Positions 3,224-39,710 of a stretch of 64,000 bases of DNA are shown piece after piece (position 1 is the stretch's first letter; the number at the start of each line of letters is the position of its first letter). The notes under the pieces were generated by a model. That model did no database searches, was not told where the DNA came from, and saw nothing but the letters and a program-made list of their open reading frames with translations. Made by a program: the position numbers and the translations under genes. This DNA comes from Verrucomicrobiia bacterium (GTDB taxonomy: Bacteria > Verrucomicrobiota > Verrucomicrobiia > Palsa-1439): positions 7,843-71,842 of the forward strand of contig JBEKLM010000008.1 in the NCBI GenBank assembly GCA_050010195.1, written 5' to 3'.

Positions 3224-3675
3224 TCCCCGACGGCACGGGGGAGCGGGTCGCGGTCACCAATCGCCAGCGCCGGTTGAAAATCAATACGCGCCTGCTCGCG
3301 GAGATCGCGGAACGCGCCCTGGAACAGGTTGGCGACAAGCCGTTCCATCTCGGGATCGTGCTGGTTGACGATGCGGCGATGGCGAAGCTCAATGCGCAAT
3401 ACCACAACACGCCGGGCGCAACGGACATCCTGAGTTTTGATTACGGTGAAGGCCAGGGCGAACTGATCATTTCGGTGGAACACGCCGTGGCGCAGGCCAG
3501 ACAGTACCGTACGACACCGGCGCAGGAACTTGTTTTGTACATGGTGCACGGTATGCTCCATCTCCACGGGTACAACGACCGCACACCGCCCCAGCGTCGA
3601 CGGATGCGCGCGGCGGAGCGGCGGTTGGTGTCACGGTTGTGTAAACGTTTTGAGTTGAAGGAGTTGATTTTGTAG
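3220..3675 (+). CDS. ybeY: Endoribonuclease YbeY (rRNA maturation factor)
   Basis: HGMLHLHGYND metal-binding motif. The 151-aa size and phoH-ybeY synteny fit. Confidence 0.9.
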   Translation: MIPDGTGERVAVTNRQRRLKINTRLLAEIAERALEQVGDKPFHLGIVLVDDAAMAKLNAQYHNTPGATDILSFDYGEGQGELIISVEHAVAQARQYRTTPAQELVLYMVHGMLHLHGYNDRTPPQRRRMRAAERRLVSRLCKRFELKELIL

Positions 3676-3715
3676 CAAACTTACAAGCGGTTGTGGGTCG
3701 CTGAGGCCATTTTTA

Positions 3716-3744
3716 TTGACTTTTAGGACATAGGGGTGTCTAAT
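3716..3744 (+). promoter_or_regulatory. Sigma70-like promoter candidate (TTGACT-17-TCTAAT) in an AT-rich gap upstream of the secreted EEP-PKD gene
   Basis: Read directly: ttgact tttaggacataggggtg tctaat. The hexamers sit in a partial inverted repeat (ttgact…agtcaa). Confidence 0.35.
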
Positions 3745-3800
3745 AAAACGTTTTAGTCAAAAATCAAATAAAGGGTGACGTTTGCCAGCAGGGGAGACCA

Positions 3801-6317
3801 ATGAATAGAACACGCTTCATGAAGAGCGCCGCAATCCGCAGGTGTTTGAGTGGCATGGCTTTCTGGGTAGTCGGCAGTATCATGGCGGTGGCTTCCGCCC
3901 AAACCACCCGAACAGTCCGTGTCGTTGAGTACAATATCCAGGCCGACACTACTTATACCATTCCGACGTGTGGCTTGATCGTTCCCTTCACTGGCACCGG
4001 CGGAAGTTTCACGACCAGCTGCGGCGGCAGTGCGACCACGACGAATGGCGGCGTGCTCGAAGGGATTGGCGAAGAGATTATAAACGGCGATCCGGCCCAG
4101 CCGATCGACATTCTGGCGTTGAATGAGACGACCAGTAACACGACCACCGTCCAACCGATCGTGAACGGGTTAAACGCATTCTACTTATACTACAATAGCA
4201 TATGCTATACGAATCATCCCGCCGGGTATGCGATGAGCACGTATCAGGCAACGGAAAGCGGCGGCAGCCCCAGCTCTGGGAACGGGCCCAACGCCCTGGT
4301 GTACAACACCAACACGCTCCAGCTTCTGGCCTCGGTCCCGGTGGATCCGCCGGGCGGCACCGGCAACCTGGGTTCCACCAGCGGCGAGTATCGCGAGGTG
4401 ATGCGGTACGAGTTTGCGCCGGCCGGTGTAACGCCCGGGACGAACAATGAGTTTTACGTCTACGTGAGCCACTACAAGGCGAGCTCGGGTAGCAGCGACG
4501 ACAAAGCTCGCTTCGGTGAGGCCAGCATCATCCGCAGTAACGAATACCTCAACTTACCCGCCAATGCCCGGGTGCTGTACGTGGGTGACTACAATCCCGA
4601 CGATAACAGCGGCGAAGCCGGCTACCAGACCATTTGCTCCAACGGCGTACCCGGCATTGCCAACTCTGCGACAGGGCAGGGCCAGGGAGTCGACCCCCTC
4701 AATATTCTGTGGACTCCGTACACAAGCGCGTCGCCCAACATTAATTGGAGTGTGAGTACGACCAATACAAATATCCTGTTTATGATGAGCGAGGAGTCCT
4801 ACGAGCTCCGGTACCGCGACGATCTCCAGGTTATGACGAGCAATGTGTACTATGACGTGGCCGGTGGTTTCCAGTATGTACCGGGAACCTACCACTCGTT
4901 CGGCAACAATGGCTCGTTCACCTGGGGAACCAGCGTGAACAGTGGTGGCAACACCGCCCTGAGCGATCTGGACACGAATCTGACGAAAGTTACCGGTCTT
5001 TCCGCCGCCGTGCTGTTGGAGGACCTTACCGGTGCCAGCGACCACCTGCCCACTGTGGCCGATTACACCATCCCCATCCCACTTTCCGTGACGGCGCCGG
5101 TAGCCAGTTTCACAAATAATCCCGCCAGCGGGCCGGTGCCATTGACCGTGCACTTTTACGACACCTCGACGGGCTCGCCCACGAGTTGGAGTTGGACGTT
5201 TGGTGATGGCAGCGGCACGTCAACGTCGCAGAACCCGAACTATACATACAACTATCCGGGTTCTTACGTGGTGACGCAGATTGTGGCCAACGCGAGCGGA
5301 TCCAGCACCAATCACAGCACGATCACGGCGTCCTGCCCGGCGATCACATTGTCACCAGCCGCCGGCGCCTTGACGGCCGGAACGGTGGGCACGGCGTACA
5401 GCCAGACGATCACGGCCAGCGGTGGGACTGGACCGTACACCTACGCCGTAACGGCGGGCTCGTTGACGGGCTCGGGTCTGAGTTTGTCATCGGCGGGCAC
5501 GCTCTCCGGTGCGTCCCCGGTGGCGGGCACGTACACGTTTACAGTCACGGCGACGGACACCAACAACTGCACGGGCAGCGCGGCCTACACATTGACCGTG
5601 GGTTGCCCGACGATCACATTGTCACCCAATGGAGCGAATCCGACGGCGTTGCCCGGCGGGACGGAGGGCACAGCGTACAACAGCCAGACGATCACGGCCA
5701 GCGGTGGGACTGGACCGTACACCTACGCCGTAACGGCGGGCTCGTTGGCGGGCTCGGGCCTGAGTTTGTCATCGGCGGGCGTTCTGTCCGGTCCGTCCCC
5801 GGTGGCGGGCACGTACACGTTTACAGTCACGGCGACGGACACCAACAACTGCACGAGCAGTCAAGCGTACAGCGTGACGGTGCAGACGCAATTCGGGTCG
5901 TGGGAGCAGTTCTACGACCTCAGCGGCACGTTGAGTGGTGGGAATGCCTCCTACACGGGCGACGGCATGAGCAACACCAACAAGTTCATGGCGGGCTTCA
6001 ATCCCACCAATGCGGCAGCGTACCTGCACGTCATCAGTATCGTGGAGTCGGTGGCGGGCAATACCAACGTCGTGGTGACGTACCTCGGCGCCAACGGGGA
6101 TAACACCTACGTGCCGGGGATTGCGTCACGGACCAACGTGCTGGATTACATGACCGGTGACGCTAACGGCAGCTACACGAATGGCGGTTGGCAGGACACC
6201 GGCCAGACCAATATTCTCAGTGGCGGGAACGGGTCCGGCATTGTCACCAACATGACGGACTCGAATGTGACGGCGAGTCCCAACTTGTATTACCGCGTGC
6301 GCGTGTTGTTGCCATAA
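3801..6317 (+). CDS. Secreted multidomain protein: endonuclease/exonuclease/phosphatase (EEP) domain, PKD domain, two putative-Ig (He_PIG) repeats and an uncharacterised ~125-aa C-terminal domain
   Basis: Signal peptide. EEP motifs DILALNE … SDHLPTVADY. PKD: PLTVHFYDTSTGSPTSWSWTFGDGSGTS. Two tandem repeats match the He_PIG consensus (…TAYSQTITASGGTGPYTYAVTAGSL…TYTFTVTATDTNNCT…). The C-terminal domain is shared with the next gene. Confidence 0.85.
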   Translation: MNRTRFMKSAAIRRCLSGMAFWVVGSIMAVASAQTTRTVRVVEYNIQADTTYTIPTCGLIVPFTGTGGSFTTSCGGSATTTNGGVLEGIGEEIINGDPAQPIDILALNETTSNTTTVQPIVNGLNAFYLYYNSICYTNHPAGYAMSTYQATESGGSPSSGNGPNALVYNTNTLQLLASVPVDPPGGTGNLGSTSGEYREVMRYEFAPAGVTPGTNNEFYVYVSHYKASSGSSDDKARFGEASIIRSNEYLNLPANARVLYVGDYNPDDNSGEAGYQTICSNGVPGIANSATGQGQGVDPLNILWTPYTSASPNINWSVSTTNTNILFMMSEESYELRYRDDLQVMTSNVYYDVAGGFQYVPGTYHSFGNNGSFTWGTSVNSGGNTALSDLDTNLTKVTGLSAAVLLEDLTGASDHLPTVADYTIPIPLSVTAPVASFTNNPASGPVPLTVHFYDTSTGSPTSWSWTFGDGSGTSTSQNPNYTYNYPGSYVVTQIVANASGSSTNHSTITASCPAITLSPAAGALTAGTVGTAYSQTITASGGTGPYTYAVTAGSLTGSGLSLSSAGTLSGASPVAGTYTFTVTATDTNNCTGSAAYTLTVGCPTITLSPNGANPTALPGGTEGTAYNSQTITASGGTGPYTYAVTAGSLAGSGLSLSSAGVLSGPSPVAGTYTFTVTATDTNNCTSSQAYSVTVQTQFGSWEQFYDLSGTLSGGNASYTGDGMSNTNKFMAGFNPTNAAAYLHVISIVESVAGNTNVVVTYLGANGDNTYVPGIASRTNVLDYMTGDANGSYTNGGWQDTGQTNILSGGNGSGIVTNMTDSNVTASPNLYYRVRVLLP

Positions 6318-6506
6318 CACGGTTTCAGGATAGGCAATATTGATGAGTCTCGTGCGACTCTGCCGCGTTGCGACCATCGGCGTGGCCGTGGAAAGGCCAG
6401 TTTCATTGCACTTTCACGACACAGGGATGTTTGCTGCCAGCTTGGTCGCTAGTGCTGTGCGTTTCGTAAATTCTACAAAGGTGACATTAATGTCTCGGAG
6501 ATTGCA

Positions 6507-8519
6507 ATGAAGAGAAAACTCACGTTTTTGATTGTAGGCGCATCCTTTTTGCTCGGTGCGCTGGCGGCGCAGGCCCAGCAAATCAAGGTGATGGAGTACG
6601 ATGCCTCGCAGGAGATCGGCGCCAACACCAATCCGACACCGCAATCGGCGGCGTTCACACGCGTCATCGCGTACCAGCAACCGGATATCGTCTGCTTCTC
6701 CGAGCTAAATGATGGCAGCTCCGTTTCGCTGGTCACCAGTGGTGTGGTCAACTGGGTGACGAACAATCTGGCTTCGATCTTCGGAACAAAGACCGGCGTC
6801 ACGTTTTGGGTCTACATCGCCAACGTGGGAGATGGATACAATCGCAACGGCGAGATCAGCCGTTATCCGATTGTCAGCGCCACGACGTATAGCGATGCCG
6901 GGGGCGGGTTTGCCAACCTGCGTGGCATGGATTCGATCCAGATCCAGTTGAGCGGAACGAACACGCTCCAGATTTTCCATGCACAACTGAAAGCGGGTGG
7001 CGGCACCCTCGACACGAACAGCAATTGCGAACGAAAGCAGGCGGAGGCCGCGACCGACGCGACCAACATGATGAACTGGGCGAGCACGAACCAGTACCCG
7101 TATATCTGGACCTGTGATTGCAATGAGGACCAGGACCCGCGCGACGCCGGTTACACCGCGCCCTACACCACGCCCGAGTGCCCGGTGTCGAGCACGTATC
7201 ATCCGATCACCACCCTCGAACAGGTGGGCGGGCTGGTTGATTACGCCCCCACCACGCTCGAAACCAATGCGGTCGGTTCATGGCGGACGTGGAGCACGGC
7301 GCAAACGGCTGGTCAGCCGTCCGACATGTTCGATCGCATTCTTGCCGCGACCAACCGGCTCAGCCCCGCGTCCGGGCTGGTGTTCAGCACGTTCGACTGG
7401 GCCGCGCACGGTCTGTACACCAACGCGAGCCCGCAGAATCTCGTTAACGACAGCCTGACGGCGGACGATCACTACGATGTCATGGTGACCTACTCGTTTC
7501 CGACCTCCGGGACGAATTCTGGCGTCAACCCGACCTTGCTCACGGCGAGCGGAAGTCCGGGCGGGCCGTTCACTCCCTCCAGTCAGATCTGCGTGCTGAC
7601 GAACTTCGACACGATCCCGTTGTTTTGGTACGCGACAAACCAAACCAGCTGGTTGAAGGTTTCTTCTCCGGCCGGAAACCTTGGCGCCGGTTGGGGCACA
7701 AACATCACCGCGTCCATTACGGCGGCGGCCAATTCGCTGACAGCGGGGACGTACACGGACACGATTACCTTCAGCAACACGGCTACGGGAGTTTCTCTCC
7801 CAGTGGGTGTGACGCTGACAGTCGGGACACCACCACCCGTGGCGAGTTTTACGGCGAGTCCGACCAACGGCGCGACGCCGTTGACCGTGAGCTTCACGGA
7901 CCACTCGTCCGGTTCGGTGACGGGCTGGGCGTGGGCGTTTGGGGACGGCAACACGTCGATCAGCGAGAACCCGTCGGACATCTACGTGACTCCGGGCACG
8001 TACACGGTGCAGGAGATCGTCAGCGGCCCGGGTGGGTCCAGTACGGACACGGTGGTGAATGTGATCAACGTGTACGACCCGTTCGCGTGGTGGCAACTCC
8101 AGTACTTCGGCAGCACCAACATTAGTGCGAGCACCGCGCCGGGCGGGGATTACACCGGTACCGGTATGAGCAACACCAACAGATTTCTGGCGGGCTTCAA
8201 TCCCACCAACGCGGCGGCGTACCTGCACGTCATCAATGTCGTGGAGTCGGTGGCGGGCAATACAAACGTCGTGGTGACGTATCTTGGGCCCAATGGGGAC
8301 AACACCTATGTGCCGGGGATTGCGTCACGGACGAACGTATTGGATTACATGACCGGCGACGCCAACGGCAACTACACGAATGGCGGCTGGCAGGACACGG
8401 GCCAGACCAATATTCTCAGCGGTGGGAATGGGTCGGGGATTGTCACCAACATGACGGATCCGGCGATCCCGGGCGCCCCGACGAACCGGTACTACCGCGT
8501 GCGCGTGGTGTTGCCGTAA
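6507..8519 (+). CDS. Secreted paralogous protein: EEP-like N-terminal region, PKD domain and the same uncharacterised C-terminal domain
   Basis: Signal peptide. DIVCFSELND (an EEP DIVCLQE-like motif). PKD: PLTVSFTDHSSGSVTGWAWAFGDGNTS. The C-terminal ~125 aa are about 90% identical to the 3801..6317 C-terminus. Confidence 0.8.
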   Translation: MKRKLTFLIVGASFLLGALAAQAQQIKVMEYDASQEIGANTNPTPQSAAFTRVIAYQQPDIVCFSELNDGSSVSLVTSGVVNWVTNNLASIFGTKTGVTFWVYIANVGDGYNRNGEISRYPIVSATTYSDAGGGFANLRGMDSIQIQLSGTNTLQIFHAQLKAGGGTLDTNSNCERKQAEAATDATNMMNWASTNQYPYIWTCDCNEDQDPRDAGYTAPYTTPECPVSSTYHPITTLEQVGGLVDYAPTTLETNAVGSWRTWSTAQTAGQPSDMFDRILAATNRLSPASGLVFSTFDWAAHGLYTNASPQNLVNDSLTADDHYDVMVTYSFPTSGTNSGVNPTLLTASGSPGGPFTPSSQICVLTNFDTIPLFWYATNQTSWLKVSSPAGNLGAGWGTNITASITAAANSLTAGTYTDTITFSNTATGVSLPVGVTLTVGTPPPVASFTASPTNGATPLTVSFTDHSSGSVTGWAWAFGDGNTSISENPSDIYVTPGTYTVQEIVSGPGGSSTDTVVNVINVYDPFAWWQLQYFGSTNISASTAPGGDYTGTGMSNTNRFLAGFNPTNAAAYLHVINVVESVAGNTNVVVTYLGPNGDNTYVPGIASRTNVLDYMTGDANGNYTNGGWQDTGQTNILSGGNGSGIVTNMTDPAIPGAPTNRYYRVRVVLP

Positions 8520-10601: not shown

Positions 10602-12647
10602 TCACTTAGTTTTGTACGGTCCAAGAAATTTGTGGCCGTCGAAGTGCACGAGGTGGTCTGGCGTGTCCGCAATCCACACCTCTGTCTCCCAGGCGATGTC
10701 TGGTGCGAATTTCCTGAACGTCTCTCGGCTGAGAAATGCGGTTACGAAAATCAGTTCAGCCGTGCATTCTCGGCACAGACGTTCCAGTTCGACTAAACGG
10801 AGCGGAGAGATCGGGCCGGAGCTGTGAACCGCCTCTATTAAGAAGAGCCAGTTCTTCTCCTCTGAATAGGCAACAATGTCCGGTAGTTCTCCGTGTTCGA
10901 GTTTAAAGAACTTCAACGAGTCCAACTTTCTTTCGTTGCGGACTAGGTATCTGTTGGCGGCATCACCAACGTAAAGAACCTCGGCGCCAAATCCATACCG
11001 AGGGAGGAACACTTCGATTACTGCCTTTTGCAGAAGATTGTGCTCGCCCGGGCTGAAGTGAAGTGTCTTCCCGTCGGGTAGCTTTACCGGAACAAGCTCA
11101 AGGTTGCGCTCTGCCTTCAGGCGTTCGGCCAGCGTGGGCCTGCCGTCCATAAATTCCTCAATTTCCTCTAGCCAACCATCCTGGCCAAAAAACTTAATAA
11201 TCTCGATGAACTCCGGAGATAGCGAGTACCCGCGTGTTGGATCATTACGCGCAGCGGCTGGTTTATTTGCGCTTGCGATAACAATTCCGGCGACAACGAG
11301 CATTTTTAGGTCTTTACGACGAATATCATCGTAAGAGCCCTTCGAAATCTGTTCTTCGAAATGCTTATTCACATAATCAATGATATCGCGCGATTTCAGC
11401 GTATCTTTGCCCGTCCGCATACGAGCGTTGGGCCAGTCTGCGCTTCGCTTTACGTCGGCAACAGCTAGAAATGCCATCGCCATCCGTTCTAGTTCACGGG
11501 GCTTCAGACCCTCAAGGGGGATGCCCAATTTAGATAGCACGAGCAAGGCTTCATTGAATAATTTTGTCAGCCGTTGACTTTTTCCAGAGGAAGCGACGAA
11601 CTGAGGTGTTTTCATTTCTGAAGACTCCTTAAATTCCAGGGGCAGCGTGAATTGATCTGGCAGATTACGGTAAAGAATCTCAGCGGATTCGAGGCGGCGT
11701 TTTGAGGCTAGGTATGTGCGAATTGCACCCGCCAGATGCCACGCGAAAAGGGGCGGCACGGCGTTGCCCACTTGGTTGAACTGGCTGGTTTCCCCGCCCG
11801 CGAACTGAAATCCGTCAGGAAAGCTTTGCAGCCTAGCCGCCTCGTGGATAAGGATCCTCCGCCGTCGCCCGTCGGGCAGGCGAATTCGATGCATGTCCCC
11901 GGTTGCGCCGGCAAGGTTGCGGCAAGTCAATGTACGCGCGGGCTGATCGGGGTGAAGATCACGCGGGCGGACACAAAAAGAGGCGCGCTCATATTTAGCT
12001 ACGTATTCGTCCATGCTTGGCGTCAGAAACTTGGATTCAGGCGGCGCTTGGGACATAAGCCCGCCCAGGGCTTCGCCAGCCGTTACCTTCGCGGAGCATT
12101 CAATGGGGAATTGAAATTCACCTCGGTGGCCAACAACAATCACCCGCTCTCGGTTCTGCGGAACTCCGAAGTTTACGGCATTGAGGAGGCGCACCTCGAC
12201 AACATAATTGAGTGCGCGCAACGCGGCGATGACTTCATCGAAATACCACCGACTCCCGTAGAGCATCCCGCGAACATTCTCGAACATCCAGATGTCGGGC
12301 TGGACGCGCTTTATAGCGGAGATGAAGATAGGAAACCCGTCACGCGAATCCTTGAGCCCCAATTGGTAACCGCCCACGCTGAAAGGCTGGCACGGCGGTC
12401 CGCCGATTATGACCTTTGCTTGAGGATATATGGTGTCGACTGTGAGAGCGACTTGCTGGCAGTCGCCTTTGAGGTTTCGGTGATACGTATCGCAGGCGTC
12501 GCGATCTTGCTCATACCCCAGCGTCTTGAATCCCTGCGCCTCGAATCCAAGTGCAAGTCCGCCACAACCTGCGAATAGATCGAGAACCAAGGGTGAGCCG
12601 TTCTCCTTCGGCTTCAGCATTGTGTTGATCTTCTCTATGTAGGGCAT
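10602..12647 (-). CDS. DNA (cytosine-5) methyltransferase fused to a ~350-aa C-terminal restriction-endonuclease-like domain (BsuBI/PstI-type by recollection)
   Basis: m5C MTase motifs: I LVLDLFAGCGGLALGF, IV GGPPCQPFSVGG, VI ENVRGM, X FNQVGNAVPP. A further 350 aa follow, containing a PD…EEK element. GC is ~52%, against >60% in flanking genes. The start was chosen at the internal Met (MPYIEKI) to limit overlap with vsr. Confidence 0.75.
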   Translation of the reverse strand: MPYIEKINTMLKPKENGSPLVLDLFAGCGGLALGFEAQGFKTLGYEQDRDACDTYHRNLKGDCQQVALTVDTIYPQAKVIIGGPPCQPFSVGGYQLGLKDSRDGFPIFISAIKRVQPDIWMFENVRGMLYGSRWYFDEVIAALRALNYVVEVRLLNAVNFGVPQNRERVIVVGHRGEFQFPIECSAKVTAGEALGGLMSQAPPESKFLTPSMDEYVAKYERASFCVRPRDLHPDQPARTLTCRNLAGATGDMHRIRLPDGRRRRILIHEAARLQSFPDGFQFAGGETSQFNQVGNAVPPLFAWHLAGAIRTYLASKRRLESAEILYRNLPDQFTLPLEFKESSEMKTPQFVASSGKSQRLTKLFNEALLVLSKLGIPLEGLKPRELERMAMAFLAVADVKRSADWPNARMRTGKDTLKSRDIIDYVNKHFEEQISKGSYDDIRRKDLKMLVVAGIVIASANKPAAARNDPTRGYSLSPEFIEIIKFFGQDGWLEEIEEFMDGRPTLAERLKAERNLELVPVKLPDGKTLHFSPGEHNLLQKAVIEVFLPRYGFGAEVLYVGDAANRYLVRNERKLDSLKFFKLEHGELPDIVAYSEEKNWLFLIEAVHSSGPISPLRLVELERLCRECTAELIFVTAFLSRETFRKFAPDIAWETEVWIADTPDHLVHFDGHKFLGPYKTK

Positions 12648-13066
12648 CGCTTTGGCTTGCTGCCTTTGATGGCCTTCTTCAGGCGTGCAACAACCCGAGA
12701 CTCTCGTTTGAGTGAATGTTCCCATATACGAATGACGCTCCAGCCCTGTCTCCTCAATTTCCGGCTAACGGCACGATCGCGAGTTTGGTTCTTAACAATC
12801 TTATCCTCCCAATACAAGGCATTCTGTCTCGGTCGCTGGAGGTGCGATGAACAACCGTGCCAAAAGCAACCGTCCACGAATACCGCTAGACGGCGACTAG
12901 CGAAGATGAAATCTGGTCTGCCCGGCAGCGCTTGATTTCGTCGCCATCCGGTGATGCCGTTTGCCCGCATGATGGACATCAGTTTCAGCTCGGTGTGCTT
13001 GTTGCCGCTTGAACGAATGGCCGCCATTACATCGGAGCGCTTCCGCTTGGTAAATATGTCAGGCAT
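12635..13066 (-). CDS. vsr: Very-short-patch repair endonuclease Vsr
   Basis: FVDGCFWHGC motif and a ~140-aa Vsr-like sequence. The 3' end overlaps the m5C MTase gene. Confidence 0.9.
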   Translation of the reverse strand: MPDIFTKRKRSDVMAAIRSSGNKHTELKLMSIMRANGITGWRRNQALPGRPDFIFASRRLAVFVDGCFWHGCSSHLQRPRQNALYWEDKIVKNQTRDRAVSRKLRRQGWSVIRIWEHSLKRESRVVARLKKAIKGSKPKRCPT

Positions 13067-13175
13067 ACGCTTTTTCGAGCTTAACCAGACAGGGAATTTT
13101 CCACAAGTTTACGGGTAGGAGACGGGGTTCAAAAGTCAGGAGACTGAAAGCAATCTCGGGTGTAAAATTGCTCTC

Positions 13176-13300
13176 ATGTGCGGTCGATTTACGTTGGCGA
13201 AAGAGCTTCGCGTAGTCGCGGCGCGATTCGGCGTTAATTGCGGCCACGGATACGACGAGGCCGCGTCTCGCTACAGTCGCAGCTCGGCTATCCCAGCGAA
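13176..13300 (+). pseudogene. Stub of an SOS-response-associated peptidase (SRAP/YedK) gene
   Basis: Translation MCGRFTLAKELRVVAARFGV matches the invariant SRAP N-terminus (MCGRF…), then degenerates into GC-rich low-complexity sequence. Confidence 0.45.
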
Positions 13301-13760
13301 CGGGTTCCATGGGGCGGCGGTGGAGGCGGGGGGCTTTCGGCTGGTGACAGCCGACGCTACAAGGACGACGGCGGACGGCGCGCTGGGCCAGCACGCCCTA
13401 CCGGGGGCAAAGGCGGCGGGGTACACGAAGGACGCGAAGTAGACACGAATCGCACGAAGGTCAAGGGGCGGAAGGCGAGGCGGACGGCGCGCTCCAAAAG
13501 AGGGCAAGAGAAGCGCAGGCTAAAGCCGTGCGGCTACCGGGGACGGCACGCCGACAGAGCGGCGTGGCTACAGGGACGGGGGACGGACCGCGGTCGACGC
13601 CCGCGGCTACAACGGGCGGGGCGGAAGGGCGGCGGGCGTGATAACGACGGCGGCTGGATACCCTCATCGGATTCGGGCATCGAGCCCTACAATGCGGCGG
13701 CGAGAAGCGGCCACGACGAAGCGTGGCCCGAACGGTGCTACCGGGCGCGTTGACACCATA
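13300..13760. repeat. GC-rich degenerate repeat tract (GCTACNNGGRCG-like units and G-runs such as gggcggggcggaagg)
   Basis: gctacaaggacg, gctaccggggacg, gctacagggacg and gctacaacgggcg recur every ~32-40 bp. Every ORF here is low-complexity G/R-rich. Confidence 0.5.
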
Positions 13761-13776
13761 GCGGGGGGCGATTACG

Positions 13777-14430
13777 ATGAGCGCGGGCATGAGCGAACTG
13801 TGGAAAGATCTGCGGAATTCTTTTTTCGCGGGGTTGCTGGTGGTGGTGCCGGTGGCGGCGTCGGTGCTGATTCTGCTGGCGGTATTCACGTGGGTGACGG
13901 ATTTCATGCTGCCGGATGCATTGCGGCAGCAGATGTTGACGCCGTTGTATCGGATCATCGCGTTGGTGCTGTTCGTGGGGTTCACGATGGGCGTGGGGTG
14001 GATCACGCGTCACATGATCGGGCGGCGGATGGTGTCGGCGACGGAGTCGATGATCGGGCGGGTGCCGTTGTTGAACAAGACGTACGGGTTCATGAAGGAG
14101 ATCAGCCAGACGCTGTTGTCGGGTCGGAAGACGATGTTTCAGCGGGTGGTATTGGTGGAATTTCCGCGGCCGGGGGTGTATTCCGTGGGATTTGTCACGA
14201 GCGAGGCGGGGGGCGAAGCGCAGGCGAAGACGGGTCAGACGGTGATCAATGTGTTTGTGCCGACGACGCCGAATCCGACGAGCGGTTTTCTGATTTTGGT
14301 GCCGCGGGGACAGTTGGTGGACCTGAACATGAGCGTGGCCGAGGGGATGAAGATGGTGATTTCGGGCGGGACGGTGGTGCCTGGGTACACGCCGGTGGGG
14401 CAGGAGACGCTGAAGCTGGGACAGCCGTAG
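13777..14430 (+). CDS. DUF502 family membrane protein
   Basis: N-terminal TM segments with DUF502-like conservation (…FFAGLLVVVPVAASVLIL…VLVEFPRPGVYSVGFVT…). Confidence 0.7.
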   Translation: MSAGMSELWKDLRNSFFAGLLVVVPVAASVLILLAVFTWVTDFMLPDALRQQMLTPLYRIIALVLFVGFTMGVGWITRHMIGRRMVSATESMIGRVPLLNKTYGFMKEISQTLLSGRKTMFQRVVLVEFPRPGVYSVGFVTSEAGGEAQAKTGQTVINVFVPTTPNPTSGFLILVPRGQLVDLNMSVAEGMKMVISGGTVVPGYTPVGQETLKLGQP

Positions 14431-32948: not shown

Positions 32949-33024
32949 TGGTGGAGATGAGGGGATTTGAACCCCTGACCTCCTCGTTGCGAACGAGGCG
33001 CTCTCCCAACTGAGCTACATCCCC
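32949..33024 (-). tRNA. tRNA-Ala (anticodon CGC), CCA encoded
   Basis: The reverse complement reads GGGGATGTAGCTCAGTTGGGAGAGCGCCTCGTTCGCAACGAGGAGGTCAGGGGTTCAAATCCCCTCATCTCCACCA. It has the G3:U70 pair, the anticodon loop TT-CGC-AA and a GTTCAAATC T-loop. Confidence 0.95.
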
Positions 33025-33401: not shown

Positions 33402-34193
33402 ATGAGCGCCCTATTTCGTCCCCACCATAAATTTGTCATTGGCGTCGTTCACCTGAAACCTCTTCCCGGCTCACCCAAATGGGGTGGCAGCCTGCAGGCC
33501 GTCATCGATTTTGCCCTTGCCGACGCCCGGGCCTACGAGCGCGGCAGCGTTGACGCGATCATCATCGAAAACTTCGGCGACGCGCCATTCACCAAGTCGC
33601 GTGTCGGGCCGGAGACGGTTGCCGTCATGTCGGCCGCGGGCTCGGCAGTCCGCGCCGCGGTCAAGCTGCCGCTGGGATTCAATGTGTTGCGCAACGACCC
33701 GCAAACTGCGTTGGCGCTGTGCGCCGCGTGCGGCGGGAGTTTCGTGCGGGTGAACGTCCATTCCGGCGCGATGCTGACCGATCAGGGCATCATCGAAGGC
33801 GACGCTTACGGAACTGTCCGTTATCGCGAACGAATTTGCCCGACCGCGTCCATTTTTGCCGATGTCCACGTGAAGCACGCCGTCCCACTCGGTAATTTTG
33901 AAATCGAGGACTCGGCGCATGACACGCTGGATCGTGGGCTGGCCGATGCCCTGATCATTTCCGGAACGGGCACGGGCCGGGTGGCGGACATTACGGACGT
34001 GCAGCGTGTGCGCGAGGCATGCCCGTCGGCGAAGATTCTCATCGGCAGCGGCATCAATGTCGACAATGTCCGCGAGTTCCTCCGTTATGCCGACGGCGTG
34101 ATCGTGGGCACATCGCTCAAAGTCGGCGGTAAACTATTCAGCGCGGTCGATCCCCGGCGCGTGGCGGCGCTCGTCAAAGCCGCCCACGCGTGA
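33402..34193 (+). CDS. BtpA/SgcQ family TIM-barrel protein
   Basis: N-terminal VIGVVHLKPLPGSP… and overall BtpA-family conservation. Confidence 0.7.
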   Translation: MSALFRPHHKFVIGVVHLKPLPGSPKWGGSLQAVIDFALADARAYERGSVDAIIIENFGDAPFTKSRVGPETVAVMSAAGSAVRAAVKLPLGFNVLRNDPQTALALCAACGGSFVRVNVHSGAMLTDQGIIEGDAYGTVRYRERICPTASIFADVHVKHAVPLGNFEIEDSAHDTLDRGLADALIISGTGTGRVADITDVQRVREACPSAKILIGSGINVDNVREFLRYADGVIVGTSLKVGGKLFSAVDPRRVAALVKAAHA

Positions 34194-34945
34194 ACACGAT
34201 TCGATTAAGCCGCGACTGGCCCGCGGTGGAGGTCCTCCACGAAGACGAGGCCATTCTGGCGGTGAACAAGCCGGCCGGTTTGCTTGCCGTCCCGGATCGG
34301 TTCGACAAGGACAAGCCCGACCTGATCTCGCTGCTTCAGGCGGCGCGTCCGGGGGAATCATTGGCGAACGTTCATCGCCTTGATTTCAACACCAGCGGCG
34401 TGTTCGTCGTGGCGAAGAACCAGGAAACGTTTCGCGATCTGGTTCGCCAGTTCCGCGACCGCGAGACGCGAAAAATGTATGCGGCACTTGTACGAGGTAC
34501 GCCCGACATATCACCCCTGACCATTGACCTTCCCATTGGGCGACATCCCAAGTTTCCGGGGCTGGCCCGGATCGATCACAGTCGCGGCAGCGAAGCGCGG
34601 AGTCTCGTCCACGTTCGGGAGAGATTTCGCGGGTATGCGTTGCTGGAGGTCGTCATCGAAACCGGACGGATGCACCAGATTCGCGTGCATGTACAGGCCG
34701 TCGGGTGCCCGCTGGTCGGTGATCCCGATTACGGCGGCGCTCCACTGTTGCTCTCGCAGTTCAAGGCTGACTACAAGGGGAAGGACGACGAGCCGGAGCG
34801 TCCGTTGCTGGATCGCCCGGCGTTGCACGCGGAGCGATTGACGCTCAACCGTCCAATGACGGCTGAGAAACTCACCATCGAAGCCCCGTGGCCGAAGGAT
34901 TTGACGATAGCGTTGAAGCAACTGCGCAAGTACGCCGCGCTTTAG
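34190..34945 (+). CDS. RluA-family pseudouridine synthase
   Basis: Catalytic motif VHRLDFNTSGVFVVAKN plus the HQIRVH motif. Confidence 0.85.
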   Translation: MNTIRLSRDWPAVEVLHEDEAILAVNKPAGLLAVPDRFDKDKPDLISLLQAARPGESLANVHRLDFNTSGVFVVAKNQETFRDLVRQFRDRETRKMYAALVRGTPDISPLTIDLPIGRHPKFPGLARIDHSRGSEARSLVHVRERFRGYALLEVVIETGRMHQIRVHVQAVGCPLVGDPDYGGAPLLLSQFKADYKGKDDEPERPLLDRPALHAERLTLNRPMTAEKLTIEAPWPKDLTIALKQLRKYAAL

Positions 34946-35730
34946 CGCGGTTTGCGAGCGCGGATGATCAGGAAGAAGGCGACCTTGCGCGTGTCGGCCA
35001 CGCGCGGGCATTCGGCGGCGGTTTTCTCGTCGGCGCGCGGTTCGGCCAGGCGTTCGATTTGAAATCCGGTATCGAGCAACATGTTGAGCCATTCGCTCAA
35101 CGTATGATCGAAGTAGGCCATCCGAAACTTGCGCATCTTGTCGGTCAGTTCCTTCGGCGCTGCTCCAAAGATCCACTCATCGATCCGTCCGGGTTTCTGG
35201 TCGAAATACTGACCGCACAGCACGCCGAGTTTGGTTCCGTTCTCGTCCCGAATCCAGTTCCACAAGGGCGTTTGGAAGCAGGGATGGGTGATCGAGAACT
35301 GGAAGAAGCCGCCCGGTTTGATCACGCGAAATGCCTCCCGAATCGCCCGGTCCTGTTCCGGCATGTCCATCAGGGACATGAATGCCGTGGCGAAATCGAA
35401 GGATCGATCGGGGAAGGGGAGTTGCACGGCGCTGGCGAGGTGATAGTCGATTCCCAGGGGCTTTTCCCTTTCCGCGTCCGATGCGTAACGAATGAACGTC
35501 TCCGAGATATCGAACGCGGTCATTACCGCACCGCGCTGGGCGAGCAGCCGGGTATTATGGCCCTCTCCGCAGCCGATGTCCAGTCCGCGTAGCCCTTTCA
35601 CCTCCGGCAACATCGCGAAAAAAGCGGGCGTATTGACGTAGTCACGATACACGTCATGGCCAGCCCGAGAGAGTTGGGTCCACACCTCGGCGTTCTCATC
35701 CCACATCCGCCCGACTTCACGATCATTCAC
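34942..35730 (-). CDS. Class I SAM-dependent methyltransferase
   Basis: Motif I LDIGCGEGHNTRLLA and post-I acidic DISE. Confidence 0.75.
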   Translation of the reverse strand: MNDREVGRMWDENAEVWTQLSRAGHDVYRDYVNTPAFFAMLPEVKGLRGLDIGCGEGHNTRLLAQRGAVMTAFDISETFIRYASDAEREKPLGIDYHLASAVQLPFPDRSFDFATAFMSLMDMPEQDRAIREAFRVIKPGGFFQFSITHPCFQTPLWNWIRDENGTKLGVLCGQYFDQKPGRIDEWIFGAAPKELTDKMRKFRMAYFDHTLSEWLNMLLDTGFQIERLAEPRADEKTAAECPRVADTRKVAFFLIIRARKPR

Positions 35731-35787: not shown

Positions 35788-37146
35788 TCACGCGCCAGGA
35801 AACCTGCGTTGTTGGTACAGTATGTCCCAGCAATTGCCTGCAGCGTGTTCGCGGTCATGATGGTAAAAAAGATGGATGACACCTCGCAACAAAACCACCT
35901 GTGGGGAATGGGCTGCCCTGCCCGGCGTTGTGCTCGTCACTTGCCTTGGCTCCGACCAGTGTTGGCCGCCATCCGCGCTGACGGAGTAGGCAATATCGTA
36001 TCTGGCATCGCGTCCCTTGCCAGCGTGATGCACCCAGGCAACAACGATTCTCTGGCCCTCCACAGACATGGACAAACCGCTGGTGCTGATACTTCTGGGT
36101 TTCAGGCCCGCTGACAACTTTCTTGCCTCAGACCATGTGGCAGTCGAATCCTTCCAGTTCCGGTAAAAGAGTTGGTAGTCAAGGCTCTCCCCGAAAAAAG
36201 GAACCTGGTCCTTCAACCGCAGTTCTGTCGCCGGGTTTTCCAGCCAGCAAAAATGGAACGTGTCCTCGTCACCCACGGGAGCACAGACGCTATACCAGTA
36301 GTGCGCGACGAGCGTTTGCAGGGCGGGCCAGGGCGCATCGCTTCCGCTTCTTTCGGTATACACCAGATCCGGCGCATGGTTCACGAGGAGGAATTGAGTC
36401 CCGCGACTCGCGAAAAGACCCGGCAAGGCCGTGTATCCTCGCAAATCAAACAAGTGGGTCCTCGTCCACGACGACCCACCATCCTGACTTTCATAGACCC
36501 CAATCACAGCCGGCGATCCCTCTTTTCTGGCTTCGTTGGCAAACGAGACGTCCGCCTGAGCCACGTATGGGACATCAATCTGCGAGCCGCGGACCAGCGC
36601 GCTCCCAAAACCGAATTCGTATACCCCCAGACTTGTAGCTTCCGTGCCGAACAGATCCCCTCGGGTCAATGCCACCTTCTCGCGGGCCACCGTTTGCAGA
36701 CCGAAATCGTTGTCGAGGGACGCGACCACGATTTCCCCATCAACCCTGTCTTGGGAAAAATTCCTGGCCTGATACGCTTGATTGCGCGGCGGCAGAACGT
36801 CGGATTTCACGAGTACAATCTCGTTGGTCGTCGCGTCAGCGTACGCCAGGTGGTAGCCGTTAAAGGCTGGGACCGCTTTCTTGTCCCAATTCAGTCCGTC
36901 ATCTCCCAGAGTGTAAAGGGCGTGGTCTTCCAAATCGAAAGCGACGGCGCGGTTATTGAACTTGCGAGCCTGCAGGTCGGATCGGCACCCCAATTCGGAA
37001 TCAAGAACCTTTGGAGCCGTCCAGTCGGTATCGATCGGTGCAACGCGCGGCGCCACGCGGCCACATCCGCTTGCGCACAGCGCCGAGACGAAAACCGTGG
37101 CGAGCAGAAACGCGAGCCGTGACAGCGGTCGCATCTGATTCTTCAT
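35788..37146 (-). CDS. BNR/sialidase-like repeat lipoprotein
   Basis: Lipobox (SALCASGC). BNR motifs SQDGGSSWTRT and SADGGQHWSE. Confidence 0.7.
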   Translation of the reverse strand: MKNQMRPLSRLAFLLATVFVSALCASGCGRVAPRVAPIDTDWTAPKVLDSELGCRSDLQARKFNNRAVAFDLEDHALYTLGDDGLNWDKKAVPAFNGYHLAYADATTNEIVLVKSDVLPPRNQAYQARNFSQDRVDGEIVVASLDNDFGLQTVAREKVALTRGDLFGTEATSLGVYEFGFGSALVRGSQIDVPYVAQADVSFANEARKEGSPAVIGVYESQDGGSSWTRTHLFDLRGYTALPGLFASRGTQFLLVNHAPDLVYTERSGSDAPWPALQTLVAHYWYSVCAPVGDEDTFHFCWLENPATELRLKDQVPFFGESLDYQLFYRNWKDSTATWSEARKLSAGLKPRSISTSGLSMSVEGQRIVVAWVHHAGKGRDARYDIAYSVSADGGQHWSEPRQVTSTTPGRAAHSPQVVLLRGVIHLFYHHDREHAAGNCWDILYQQRRFPGA

Positions 37147-37195
37147 CGACGTCCTGCAGATTGTTTTGGGCATTCTCACGCCCGGGCGTTCACAG

Positions 37196-37218
37196 CGTCG
37201 GTTTTTCGGTCTCGGCGG
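37196..37218. repeat. Direct repeat copy A (cgtcggtttttcggtctcggcgg), part of a degenerate duplicate of the leuA 3' terminus
   Basis: Exact 23-mer, also at 37942..37964. The surrounding ~60 nt encode …[15 protein letters not shown], against leuA …[15 protein letters not shown]. Confidence 0.7.
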
Positions 37219-37257
37219 ACTGGCGGATTTCATAGAGAACATGCTTGAGGAAGCCGA

Positions 37258-37776
37258 CTAGCCAGGTTGTTTGCGCGCCCGGATCGCTTGCAGTTGAGCA
37301 ATCGCTTCGCGGTCGCGGGGACGGTTCATGGCGCGCTTGGCTTTGATGAGCGCATCGAGTCCAAGCACGCGGCATTTGCCAAAGCTCAAATCGATGACCA
37401 CACTTTGCTTCTTCACGGTGGCGGCGTTTCCCACGCCGAGCACTTCACTGAGGCAGTCGAGGACACCCAAATCCGTTTCCAAATAGAGGTTTTTCAGGCC
37501 GCGACACCGCTCGCGAGTCAATTCCAACGGCAGACGCTTCGGCGTGAGCCGGTGAACTGGATGCAGGTCGGTGAGCGCGGCTTGCAGCTTCAACAGGTTC
37601 CCCGGCGTGAATGGACAGCAAATATCGACATCTCGGGTTCCCAACGTTACTCCGTGCATCGTGGATGCAAAGGCACCGACGACCACGAATTCCACGTCGT
37701 GCTCGATCAGACGCCCCACAAGTGTCTTAAGCTTTGACATGCCGCCGTTTGCCTGCGGCTTCCAGCGCCTCGGCAA
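37258..37776 (-). CDS. Minimal nucleotidyltransferase-fold protein (toxin/antitoxin-like)
   Basis: NTase motif VVVGAFASTMHGVTLGTRDVDI (hG[GS]…DxD). 172 aa. Overlaps the upstream small ORF. Confidence 0.55.
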   Translation of the reverse strand: MPRRWKPQANGGMSKLKTLVGRLIEHDVEFVVVGAFASTMHGVTLGTRDVDICCPFTPGNLLKLQAALTDLHPVHRLTPKRLPLELTRERCRGLKNLYLETDLGVLDCLSEVLGVGNAATVKKQSVVIDLSFGKCRVLGLDALIKAKRAMNRPRDREAIAQLQAIRARKQPG

Positions 37777-37939
37777 AGTCTAAAGCATCTTGGTTCGCAT
37801 CGATTCGCTGCTCGGGCGTCATGCGCAGGCTAATTTCAAGCAGGTTCATGTCGCACCCGTACGCCGCGGCCGCAGCCCAAGCGTCTTTCTTTGCCTTGGG
37901 AGCGGCCTTCGAACCCCGTTTGCTGCGCGTCTTCTTCAC
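37727..37939 (-). CDS. Small basic protein (70 aa), putative partner of the NTase-fold gene
   Basis: Its start overlaps the leuA stop codon. Lys-rich N-terminus, helical C-terminus. Confidence 0.4.
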   Translation of the reverse strand: MKKTRSKRGSKAAPKAKKDAWAAAAAYGCDMNLLEISLRMTPEQRIDANQDALDFAEALEAAGKRRHVKA

Positions 37940-39489
37940 AACGTCGGTTTTTCGGTCTCGGCGGTTTGGCGTTGCTCGAAGAGGTAGCGGTTGAGGGCGT
38001 TTAAGTAGGCGAGGGCGCTGGCCTCGATGATGTCGGTCGAGGAACCCTTGCCGGTGACGATGCGGCCCGCGTCGCCATTGAAGTGGACGCGGACGGTGAC
38101 CTCGCCGATGGCGTCCTTGCCGCGCGTGACGCTGTTGACGCTGTAATCCGCGAGGCTGCCTTTGAGTCCCGTGATGCGGTCGATAGTCTTGAGCATCGCG
38201 TCAATCGGGCCGTCGCCGGTGCCGGCGTCTTGCACCGGTTCCTGTTTGTCGGCGCGGATGAGGCGCACGGAAGCGGTCGGGATTTCGCCGGTGGTCACAC
38301 TGAGATAGCCCAGTTTCCAGACCTGCGGCACCTCGGTGAACTGGCCTTCGACGAGTGCCATCACATCCTCGTCGTACACCTGCTTCTTCTTGTCGGCGAG
38401 CGCCTTGATCTGGTCGGTGATGCGGCGGACCTCGTCGTCGCTGAGCTTGTAGCCCATTTCGTCGAGCTTTTTGCCGACGGCGTGGTGGCCCATGTGTTTG
38501 CCCCAGGTGAGCTCACTCGACCGGCCCACGTCCTCGGCATGCATGATCTCGTACGTCGCGCGATTGGCCATCATGCCGTGCTGGTGAATACCGGCTTCGT
38601 GGGCGAACGCGTTGTCGCCGACGATGGCCTTGTTGCGCTGGACCACCATGCCCGTCATGTGCGACACGAGGCGGCTGCTGCGGTAGATCTGCGCGCTGTC
38701 GACGTTCGTCTGATAACCGCCGAACGCGTCCTTGCGGACCTTGAGCGCCATGACGATTTCTTCGAGGGAAGCATTGCCGGCGCGTTCGCCGATGCCGTTG
38801 ATCGTACATTCGACCTGGCGCGCGCCATTCTGGACGGCGGCCAACGAATTCGCCACAGCAAGCCCGAGATCGTTGTGACAGTGGACGCTGATGACGGCGT
38901 TCTTGATGTTCGAGACGTGGTCGAAGAGATACTTGATGAGCGCACCGTATTCGTGAGGCGCGGCGTAGCCGACCGTATCGGGGATATTGACCGTGGTCGC
39001 GCCGGCTTCGATCACGGCATGCGTCACCTCGGCCAAGAACTCGGGTTCGGTGCGCGAGGCGTCCTCGGGCGAGAACTCGACGTCTTTACAGTAGCCGAGG
39101 GCGCGCTGCACGCCTTCCACGGCGCGCTTGAGAATCTCGCTTTGCGCCATCTTGAGCTTGAACTCGCGATGAATGGCGCTCGTGGCGAGGAACACGTGAA
39201 TGCGCGCTCGCTCGCCCGCCGGTTTCACGGCTTCGGCGGCGCGGTCGATGTCGTTATCGACGCACCGGGCCAACCCGGCGATGCGCGGGCCCTGGATCTC
39301 ACCAGCAATGGATTTGACGGCCTCGAAATCGCCGTCGCTGGCGATGGGGAAGCCCGCCTCGATGATGTCCACGCGCAACCGCGCCAATTGCCGCGCGACC
39401 TCGAGTTTCTCGCGGATGTGCATGGAGGCGCCCGGGCATTGCTCGCCGTCGCGCAACGTCGTGTCGAATATCAATATTTGCTCACTCAT
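37936..39489 (-). CDS. leuA: 2-isopropylmalate synthase
   Basis: [18 protein letters not shown]…[10 protein letters not shown]…[17 protein letters not shown]. Confidence 0.95.
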
Positions 39490-39710
39490 GGCCTGATCCT
39501 TTCGATTCTAGCCGTGGACAGGGGGCAAACAACAAAAAACCCACTGTCGCGCGGCGACAGTGGGTTTTGATTTTTCTGTGTACAGACCTCAACCCGCCGT
39601 CTGCCGCGTGAGCAGCAGCGCCAGCAAAGCCAGCAGCAGGTTGAAATTACGATTCATTACGTCCCTATACGTAGCAGGTCGTGGGCCATTCGTCAAGCCC
39701 GACGAACCGC

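Follow-up and report, generated by a model that had tools for sequence, protein, structure and literature searches.

Analysis of a 64,000-nucleotide (nt) stretch of the genome of a peat-soil Verrucomicrobium (contig JBEKLM010000008.1 of assembly GCA_050010195.1; hereafter the window) pointed to a unit of 746 bp at the 3' end of leuA, in which a small gene and a gene for a minimal nucleotidyltransferase (NTase) are enclosed by two copies of the leuA tail. The best reading of the sequence is that this unit is an accessory cassette of two genes, exchanged horizontally and docked on the leuA stop codon, and models of its products suggest that it is probably a toxin-antitoxin (TA) pair with a toxin resembling MenT1. 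More generally, the cargo is best interpreted as a divergent MenT-like NTase TA module and its vehicle as an unusually small, TA-only element flanked by attachment (att) sites, which recurs at the 3' ends of many genes. For the unit in the window itself we hold, with moderate confidence, that it is a recombinase-less, att-flanked mini-island that resembles a cis-mobilizable element (CIME), carries a MenAT1-like TA module and was moved in trans.

The three genes concerned all lie on the minus strand. leuA (37936-39489) is the target gene and codes for a 2-isopropylmalate synthase of 517 amino acids (aa) with the Pfam domains HMGL-like, HCS_D2 and LeuA_dimer, and its product exceeds the cutoff of the NCBIfam 2-isopropylmalate synthase equivalogs. 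The small gene (37727-37939) encodes the putative antitoxin of 70 aa, and its GTG start shares two bases with the TGA stop of leuA, giving GTGA; this overlap had already been recorded in an earlier annotation made from the letters of the window (the first-pass annotation). The gene for the NTase, the putative MenT1-like toxin (37258-37740), overlaps the small gene by 14 nt. A length of 172 aa had earlier been assigned to the NTase; however, its start is most likely the ATG at 37740, which makes the protein 160 aa long, because this codon is where almost all homologues start and is also the one called on a matching public contig (L170; L-numbers are labels of related loci and contigs compared with the window). 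These two open reading frames (ORFs) are the only ones between the two repeat copies. A 61-aa ORF at 37190-37375 was rejected as a gene, as only its last ~20 codons are leuA-like, it overlaps the 3' end of the NTase gene out of frame and it has no gene call on L170.

The 23-mer CGTCGGTTTTTCGGTCTCGGCGG has exactly two occurrences in the window (37196-37218 and 37942-37964), and 100 dinucleotide-preserving shuffles contained no copy of it, even when 3 mismatches were tolerated. From this exact core the repeat extends to 62 nt at 76% identity with a spacing of 746 bp, which bears out the duplication of the leuA end described in the first-pass annotation. The leuA-proximal copy (copy B, 37935-37996, minus strand) comprises the functional tail of the gene, its stop codon and one base beyond, and the distal copy (copy A, 37189-37250, minus strand), which begins 8 nt past the NTase stop, is a displaced, non-coding remnant of the tail. 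The similarity of the copies covers about 16–20 codons of the minus-strand reading. The duplicated codons are approximately 498–517 of leuA and, given that LeuA_dimer ends at residue 503, they fall mostly in the tail outside the domains. The same two-copy structure was seen in five other assemblies of the lineage (L005, L006, L170, L171 and L172), and is therefore no assembly artefact. On L170 copy A is intergenic rather than part of a conserved downstream gene. There is likewise no Rfam match that would make either copy an RNA element, and the predicted fold of neither copy surpasses that of shuffles (z = +1.7 and -1.0). A role as a terminator was also rejected, since the sole terminator-like match is on the antisense strand.

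Mismatches between the two copies are unevenly distributed, with 1 in the 30 stop-proximal bases and 14 in the 32 bases upstream (Fisher p=0.0002). Gene conversion, a conserved crossover core or recent re-insertion are all possible causes of an intact 23-nt core beside a drifted upstream half. In the near-identical L005 and L006, differences from the window are almost confined to a ~180-nt patch (window ~37866-38044), which takes in ~105 nt at the end of leuA and ~70 nt at the start of the small gene. The window version of this patch matches L010, and we take it, on sequence grounds, to be a gene conversion across the leuA/cassette junction. Copy A is most similar to the L026-type tail allele, and in the region of copy B the final 120 nt of leuA have an identity of 98.3% to L010, the figure for the entire gene being 94.1%. 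This suggests that copy A may be the resident tail, and that copy B and the start of the small gene could have been imported or later converted. Since either tail copy could be the imported one, regeneration of the 3' end of the target, which the first-pass annotation saw in this pattern, is something that we infer.

To place the cassette in its clade, one genome per species was scanned, which gave 30 leuA loci of the same verrucomicrobial clade from peat, bog and palsa metagenome-assembled genomes, with LeuA proteins of 82–97% aa identity. The small gene and the NTase gene are found together at the leuA stop in 6 of these loci, a small-gene homologue without the NTase in 3, and neither gene in 21. 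At the empty sites L009 and L022, leuA is followed by a 15-nt spacer and then by a gene for an S-adenosylmethionine-dependent methyltransferase, a comparison of related genomes for empty sites having been proposed at the outset; at L008 the 15 nt are followed by only a 5' remnant of the methyltransferase gene. In the window the methyltransferase gene (34942-35730, minus strand) is 2.2 kb further from leuA, and in L087 and L090 the cassette lies exactly between leuA and this gene. The sequence at the leuA junction is (A/G)TGA in all occupied sites, and empty sites have TAG, TAA or TGA without the small gene. The nucleotide identity of leuA to that of the window is 92–94% for empty and occupied genomes alike.

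Could the pair instead have long belonged to the ilvC-leuA operon as an extension of it, passed on vertically and lost repeatedly, with the distal tail as a remnant of a local duplication? We regard this as quite improbable. It would agree with the correlation of NTase and leuA identities (Spearman 0.47, Mantel p=0.0014), with the location at leuA of all cassettes whose NTase is at least 72% identical, and with the eroded tails in several lineages and the tail-to-BNR junction that the window has in common with the distant L175. However, synonymous divergence (dS) of the NTase gene in the closest genome pairs (window versus L079, L011 and L026) is 0.85–1.20, which is 3–4 times that of the flanks (leuA 0.23–0.33, BtpA 0.36–0.43), although this value comes from a noisy 480-nt gene and codon bias may depress the dS of leuA, both of which count against reading it as exchange. 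Furthermore, each loss would have to restore a clean leuA stop and a 15-nt spacer, and the module also turns up in other phyla-level lineages at numerous unrelated loci, several of them with repeats of their own. Within the L011-L026 pair the divergence of the NTase gene and of its flanks is concordant. Given the dS incongruence alongside a moderate positive correlation, the history of the cassette appears to mix descent with allele replacement.

Two further observations concern leuA itself. Upstream of the gene, a HicA toxin gene and a small partner are found between an 85-aa membrane-protein gene and leuA in L002 and L012 (2547-2965), only a 66-aa ORF occupies the HicA position in L001 and L079 (2772-2972), and the window has only ~220 nt there (39490-39710), making this position a second variable TA slot beside leuA. 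In addition, leuA is split by frameshifts in the long contigs L079 (three tblastn segments) and L026 (two), which are probably long-read assembly errors and not pseudogenes.

Copies of the leuA tail also enclose cargo other than the NTase. In L032 the real tail is followed, 3.48 kb downstream, by a second copy of 45 nt with 80% identity; the cargo between them, a restriction-modification system plus ParDE, comprises a 308-aa ORF, an Eco57I-type methylase and an Unstab_antitox/ParE pair, the stop of which abuts the tail copy. In L035 and L174 an ORF of 430–436 aa lies between leuA and an older tail, which is fused to the C-terminus of this ORF directly before the small-gene homologue. In cassettes with the NTase, remnants of the tail that follow the 3' end of the NTase gene, or are fused to it, beat shuffles in L029, L168 and L087 and are weakly supported in L013 and L089. 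Apparent remnants in L026 and L011 were discarded as not significant against shuffles (p=0.24 and 0.88). Together with the empty sites and with the bracketing of the module by the ends of other genes, the tails around other cargo uphold the proposal of an insertion at the leuA 3' end.

The module was then followed beyond leuA through a metagenome scan with an NTase profile, which gave 80 loci. Cassettes with an NTase identity of at least 73% are all at leuA, and those of 65% or less are elsewhere. The small gene was detected upstream of the NTase gene in 46 of the 80 loci (tblastn with the 70-aa protein of the window), and an upstream ORF of at least 48 aa is present in 75 of the 76 non-leuA loci. 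Of 50 informative loci, ~16 have a small gene that begins -26 to +9 nt from the stop of a co-directional gene, mostly between -4 and +9. The docking genes named by Pfam are a PIG-L deacetylase, DUF4159, ogt/MGMT, a glyoxalase (seven loci), alaS and sucC. Docking on glyoxalase/VOC-family genes was observed in L109, L121-L124, L159 and L160, with the small gene 3–4 nt after the stop in five of them and overlapping it in L159 and L160; this stop constitutes a second recurrent docking site, and L159 and L160 have only weak repeat signals.

Seven independent loci, the window included, have clear direct repeats around both genes. At the targets other than leuA the bracketed NTases are 54–61% identical to that of the window and the repeats measure 35–68 nt. 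Next to the 62-nt leuA tail of the window, the repeats consist of the tail of a class IV aminotransferase gene (L094, 68 nt), the tail of alaS, with the distal copy starting 2 nt after the NTase stop (L126, 35 nt), a gene end with an intrinsic terminator (L148, 52 nt, exact), a repeat around both genes in L097 (41 nt), tRNA-Ala from the anticodon stem to the 3' end (L100, 56 nt) and a tRNA 3' fragment (L116/L118, 52 nt, exact). In four of the seven loci the distal repeat begins 2–12 nt past the NTase stop. A targeted repeat test was positive at p<=0.01 in 11 of 64 loci. L100 contains a three-copy array (3515-6977) in which tRNA-Ala is followed by the small gene and the NTase gene, a repeat, a PIN-domain gene, a further repeat and a large serine recombinase gene that abuts this third copy of the tRNA-Ala 3' end. 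In L116 a tyrosine recombinase gene, probably frameshifted, lies beside the array.

These features could be accounted for if a circular form of the cassette, carrying a short copy of the target 3' end, integrates by a single (Campbell-type) crossover. Such an integration would keep leuA intact and leave a direct repeat, so that the two tails would represent attL- and attR-like ends and copy A would be the resident leuA 3' end displaced at the entry of the cassette. The catalysis of this crossover would come in trans, most likely from a site-specific recombinase whose gene is located elsewhere. If the two tails then recombined with each other, the cassette would be deleted precisely and an empty site would result, and later shuffling of alleles may occur by homologous recombination in leuA, in the conserved half of the small gene and in the distal core genes. 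Persistence of the cassette might be explained by the addictive nature of a TA pair. We favor a Campbell-type crossover in trans because the same cargo is bounded by repeats at many targets and different cargoes are so bounded at leuA, and because the tRNA repeats are of classical extent and multi-copy arrays are found beside recombinase genes.

A serious, though less likely, alternative and the main rival is turnover of a hotspot through homologous recombination in the flanking core genes, combined with a one-off homology-anchored illegitimate join and with no site-specific step. A donor leuA 3' end with its cassette would pair in leuA, and the far end would join by microhomology ~60 nt upstream of the recipient stop. 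The ~180-nt conversion patch over the junction of leuA and the small gene is of the kind expected from such exchange, as are a copy A that looks resident (L026-type) next to a copy B that looks imported, and the modular exchange of the 3' half of the small gene and its partner in L010. The interval also contains BNR, PQQ propeller, PhyH and methyltransferase genes in varying combinations and without repeats, the right junctions vary in position, those of L168 and L029 being at a motif that leuA tails also contain, and no leuA-specific recombinase was found. However, a double crossover in the flanks makes no repeats, and each repeat would have to be a separate rare accident, whereas the same family is bracketed by 35–68-nt duplications at seven or more independent targets. 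Moreover, the tRNA-Ala repeat from the anticodon stem to the 3' end is a classical integrase footprint, arrays lie beside recombinase genes, and repeats also flank other cargo at leuA.

Several observations weigh against att-flanked movement in trans and should be set beside this evidence. Within the leuA-docked clade the right junction varies by lineage: in the window the 62-nt tail follows the NTase stop, in L168 and L029 ~40 nt of tail are fused in frame at CAACG (L168) or CAGCG (L029), a junction motif also present in leuA tails, and in L087 a gapped match of ~39 nt spans the NTase stop with only ~15 nt of tail beyond it. Erosion or separate illegitimate joins would explain this variation as well as att sites do. 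In most related cassettes the distal repeat is gone or reduced to eroded remnants; tail remnants were undetectable in L079, L012, L011, L026 and L090, 64 of 73 relative loci are without repeats, and no convincing motif is common to the six independent repeats. L175 has a BNR protein of only 50% identity and yet the same passage from the tail stop into the BNR leader, so the arrangement in the window may be old, and were it old the perfect 23-nt core would be hard to explain without gene conversion. A limited search recovered no tyrosine or serine recombinase in the window or within 7–10 kb of leuA in ~35 loci, and no phage or viral contig was found to carry the leuA tail or the NTase, relatives of the latter being absent from IMG/VR and from GenBank phages. 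A candidate for a common recognition motif, a CCGAAAAACCG-like word in 3–4 of the 6 repeats, failed multiple-test correction and was dropped.

The recombinase search consisted of tblastn with three queries (including the L100 serine and the L116 tyrosine recombinases) and a regular expression for the tyrosine-recombinase motif; a corresponding expression for serine recombinases missed the known recombinase of L100 and is thus uninformative. No recombinase was present inside any of the cassettes examined. A phage or plasmid origin was also discarded, the one degenerate match to the leuA-tail pattern being a chance match on an unrelated low-GC phage contig, and the only two plasmid matches to the NTase are both of 29% identity. 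In L011 a recombinase gene 68% identical to that of L100 is found ~0.4 kb beyond BtpA (12366-13925); the corresponding position of the window has tRNA-Ala(CGC) (32949-33024, minus strand) and no recombinase gene. We consider it very unlikely that the pair is a (semi-)autonomous miniature element that inserts at gene and tRNA 3' ends without a tyrosine, serine or DDE recombinase. Such an element might, for example, create its 35–68-nt target duplications through a gap-filling or target-primed insertion involving the polymerase-beta-fold NTase and its basic partner, or by way of a host repair pathway, and would take over transcription and translation of the host gene at the ATGA overlap. For the favored reading, the repeat, the empty sites, the patchy and incongruent distribution, the repeats at other targets and around other cargo, the fold similarity and the decay pattern were observed, and we infer from them toxicity and an action on tRNA, expression together with leuA, a circular intermediate and which recombinase acts.

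Around 1,200 relatives of the NTase were detected, mostly in Verrucomicrobiota and neighbouring lineages. Its motif residues are G22, T35-R-D37-V-D39, K135 and D143; in the family K135 and D143 are invariant, and T35, D37 and D39 are conserved in at least 90%. The AlphaFold model has a predicted local distance difference test (pLDDT) score of 88 and a predicted template modelling score (pTM) of 0.85. Searched with Foldseek, its best PDB match was MenT1 of the MenAT1 complex (8an5_B, E=5.9e-6, template modelling (TM) score 0.66), and the matches to MenT1, alone or in this complex, ranged from E=5.9e-6 to 3e-4 with TM scores up to 0.66. TM1012 came next, followed by ANT(2'')-Ia and LnuA. MenT1 is a toxin that acts as a nucleotidyltransferase on tRNA 3' ends, with T39, D41, K137 and D152 as key residues, and it is neutralised by the 68-aa MenA1 encoded just upstream (PMC10435456). 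Judging from order and spacing, the residues T35/D37/D39/K135/D143 appear to correspond to T39/D41/K137/D152 of MenT1. By analogy, the NTase may add nucleotides to tRNA 3' ends and thereby block aminoacylation.

The pattern of decay across the related loci also bears on function. In L013 (8801-9262) the catalytic TxDxD has become VRTVE, with both catalytic aspartates gone, and in L175 (10200-10301) the NTase is reduced to a 34-codon stump beside an intact small gene, the deletion having also taken the tail copy. Of the pair, only the small gene is left in L028 and L035. Decay thus takes the NTase first, the asymmetry to be expected were the NTase the toxin and the small protein its antitoxin.

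The first-pass annotation had seen in the pair a TA or abortive-infection type NTase module. The former part stands on the MenT1 fold match, the 70-aa gene upstream and toxin-first decay; the latter finds no counterpart in membership of the Pfam family AbiEii/DUF1814 (PF08843), to which the window NTase has no match. By sequence, the NTase family is at the edge of DUF6036/DUF2204 and not of DUF1814, with DUF6036 matches at E<=0.1 in 27 of 34 members (best 2.3e-6). Some of the profile results tell against a firm assignment to a known toxin class. The window NTase is below the DUF6036 gathering cutoff (15.5 versus 23.6 bits, E=0.016), a weak PF08843 match was found in only 1 of 34 relatives (E=0.017), PADLOC finds nothing and NCBIfam nothing useful for the two small proteins, and the model of the 70-aa protein is without a PDB fold match, its fold search having given only noise.

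It is worth weighing whether the NTase acts outside a TA system, either on small molecules or antibiotics in the manner of ANT(2'') or Lnu, or as an antitoxin of the minimal nucleotidyltransferase (MNT) type, with the small protein as a regulator or chaperone. Fold matches to ANT(2'')-Ia and LnuA are significant (TM scores 0.55–0.62), TM1012 is as close as MenT1, and the NTase neither belongs to DUF1814/AbiEii nor matches PADLOC. Nevertheless, this seems unlikely to us, given that MenT1 is the best match and has the same arrangement with a small overlapping gene upstream. There is no HEPN partner, the 70-aa protein being too small and having no Rx4-6H motif, and decay spares the small gene at the cost of the NTase. 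In the tRNA-Ala array of L100 a PIN-domain gene fills the following repeat-bounded slot, and elsewhere the module is docked on diverse core genes rather than in resistance contexts.

The predicted model of the small protein has a basic, disordered N-terminus and three helices. Its conserved core reads DAWAAAAAYGCDMNLLExSLRxTPxERI. The C-terminal third comes in several classes, each of which goes with a particular downstream partner: the NTase, a 245-aa ORF (L010) or no NTase at all (L028, L035 and L174). As an antitoxin, the protein would have an N-terminal part common to the variants and a variable, partner-specific C-terminal part. It has no match in Pfam, NCBIfam or PADLOC. In L010 (8617-9635) the first 60 nt after the leuA stop are identical to those of the window, the 3' half of the small gene differs, and the position of the NTase gene is taken by the 245-aa ORF, which is unrelated to the NTase and without a Pfam match; it may be a different toxin on the same antitoxin scaffold. 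No sigma-70-like promoter was found between 36900 and 38300 of the window. The want of an internal promoter and the GTGA overlap suggest that the cassette is expressed as an extension of leuA, and it would probably be transcribed and translated as part of the leuA message.

Beyond copy A, the window contains a gene for a BNR/sialidase-like lipoprotein of 452 aa (35788-37146, minus strand), a variable gene between copy A and the methyltransferase gene, with its leader immediately after copy A. None of the 30 leuA loci of the species scan (L007-L086) has this gene, and its counterparts in L168 and L175, at 50% aa identity, speak against an insertion specific to the lineage of the window; like other genes of the hotspot between leuA and BtpA it is variable, and it evolves fast. 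Genes for BtpA and a pseudouridine synthase (33402-34945, plus strand) form the conserved distal flank of the variable region. A 14-nt inverted match, 86% complementary, links the tail core with the signal-peptide coding region of the BNR gene (37204-37217 versus 37081-37094), and a longer one of 19 nt ties the latter region to copy B; both are probably chance matches in GC-rich sequence. A third, decayed tail between the BNR and methyltransferase genes was rejected as a forced and unconvincing alignment.

If these interpretations hold, the MenT-like NTase toxins gain a large, sequence-divergent branch of ~1,200 relatives that is missed by the current Pfam and PADLOC models, and a TA module can be the whole cargo of a sub-kilobase, repeat-bounded insert. 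Such inserts would be docked on the stops of leuA, alaS, sucC, ogt and an ilvE-like aminotransferase gene, as well as on the 3' end of tRNA-Ala, and would probably ride on the expression of the host gene, amounting to an integron-like logic without an integron. This raises the question of what moves recombinase-less cassettes into gene 3' ends of uncultivated soil bacteria, for which a trans-acting integrase, RecA acting on 20–60-nt homologies or something new are candidates; interest in these cassettes would be high should they prove mobile without a conventional recombinase. The interval between leuA and BtpA is a well-defined hotspot with many natural variants, and is suited to a population-level study in peat metagenomes.

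Among known systems of small mobile cargo, integron cassettes and XerCD-dependent pdif modules are small and apparently promoterless, frequently have TA pairs as cargo, share the orientation of a promoter upstream of them, and encode no recombinase but depend on one in trans. In contrast to these, the repeats in the window are pieces of the target gene, with no attC-like palindrome and no shared dif-like site, and there is no inverted repeat at the cassette ends nor an IntI-like gene in the window. The window unit also has no terminal inverted repeats and no transposase-sized ORF of the kind expected of transposons and insertion sequences, and duplications of 35–68 nt and of varying length are unlike their fixed short target duplication. 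Among NTase-containing systems, the HEPN-MNT type is distinguished from the present pair by its partner, which here is a 70-aa three-helix protein with no Pfam match and no Rx4-6H motif. The AbiE systems differ in their upstream gene, which in AbiEi codes for a winged helix-turn-helix protein of ~200–300 aa against 70 aa here, and no PADLOC or Pfam match to AbiE was obtained. TM1012, of the DUF6036/TM1012-like NTases, is both a top fold match and a weak sequence match to the window NTase; however, membership of this family would add little, as it is without an assigned function, and no mention of DUF6036 was found in a literature search.

Cassettes bounded by copies of a target 3' end have closer parallels. 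The staphylococcal cassette chromosome (SCC) and pseudo-SCC elements form arrays at the 3' end of rlmH (orfX) between short direct repeats of ~15–18 bp; the elements are kilobases long, and some without recombinase genes depend on Ccr in trans. The L100 array resembles them in ending with a large serine recombinase gene, although phylum, target and cargo are different and there is no Ccr-like gene near leuA. The definition of CIMEs and the accretion model come from the integrative and conjugative elements (ICEs) of streptococci and from their integrative and mobilizable elements (IMEs) (PMC5704250). Like a CIME, the window unit is bounded by direct repeats that hold the 3' end of the target and has no integration or transfer genes, several cargoes or repeat copies may occupy one site (L032, L035 and L100), and relatives have empty sites. 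It differs in that CIMEs are decay products of an ICE or IME with a cognate integrase, none of which was found here for the leuA site, and in being far smaller (0.75 kb) and fitting tightly between its repeats. No recombinase-bearing element sharing the att site was found for leuA in the window, in ~35 loci with flanks of 7–10 kb or in viral contigs, and serine (L100) and tyrosine (L116) recombinases occur beside the tRNA-Ala arrays. Random decay does not predict that the same cargo recurs with repeats at many targets.

As regards the cargo, the closest likeness is to MenAT1 (Rv0078B/Rv0078A) of Mycobacterium tuberculosis. The two NTases have only ~20% identity within the structural alignment and no detectable sequence similarity, the small protein has no detectable relation to MenA1, and the module studied here is docked on the stop codon of a housekeeping gene. 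Asymmetric 1:2 binding is a feature of MenAT1, and the window pair is known from its sequence and predicted models. In both systems, however, a gene of 68–70 aa stands immediately upstream of a minimal NTase of ~160–190 aa, and the T-x-D, K and D residues follow in the same order with similar spacing. Thus, the pair in the window has the short, co-oriented putative antitoxin gene directly upstream that marks an operon of the MenAT1 type.

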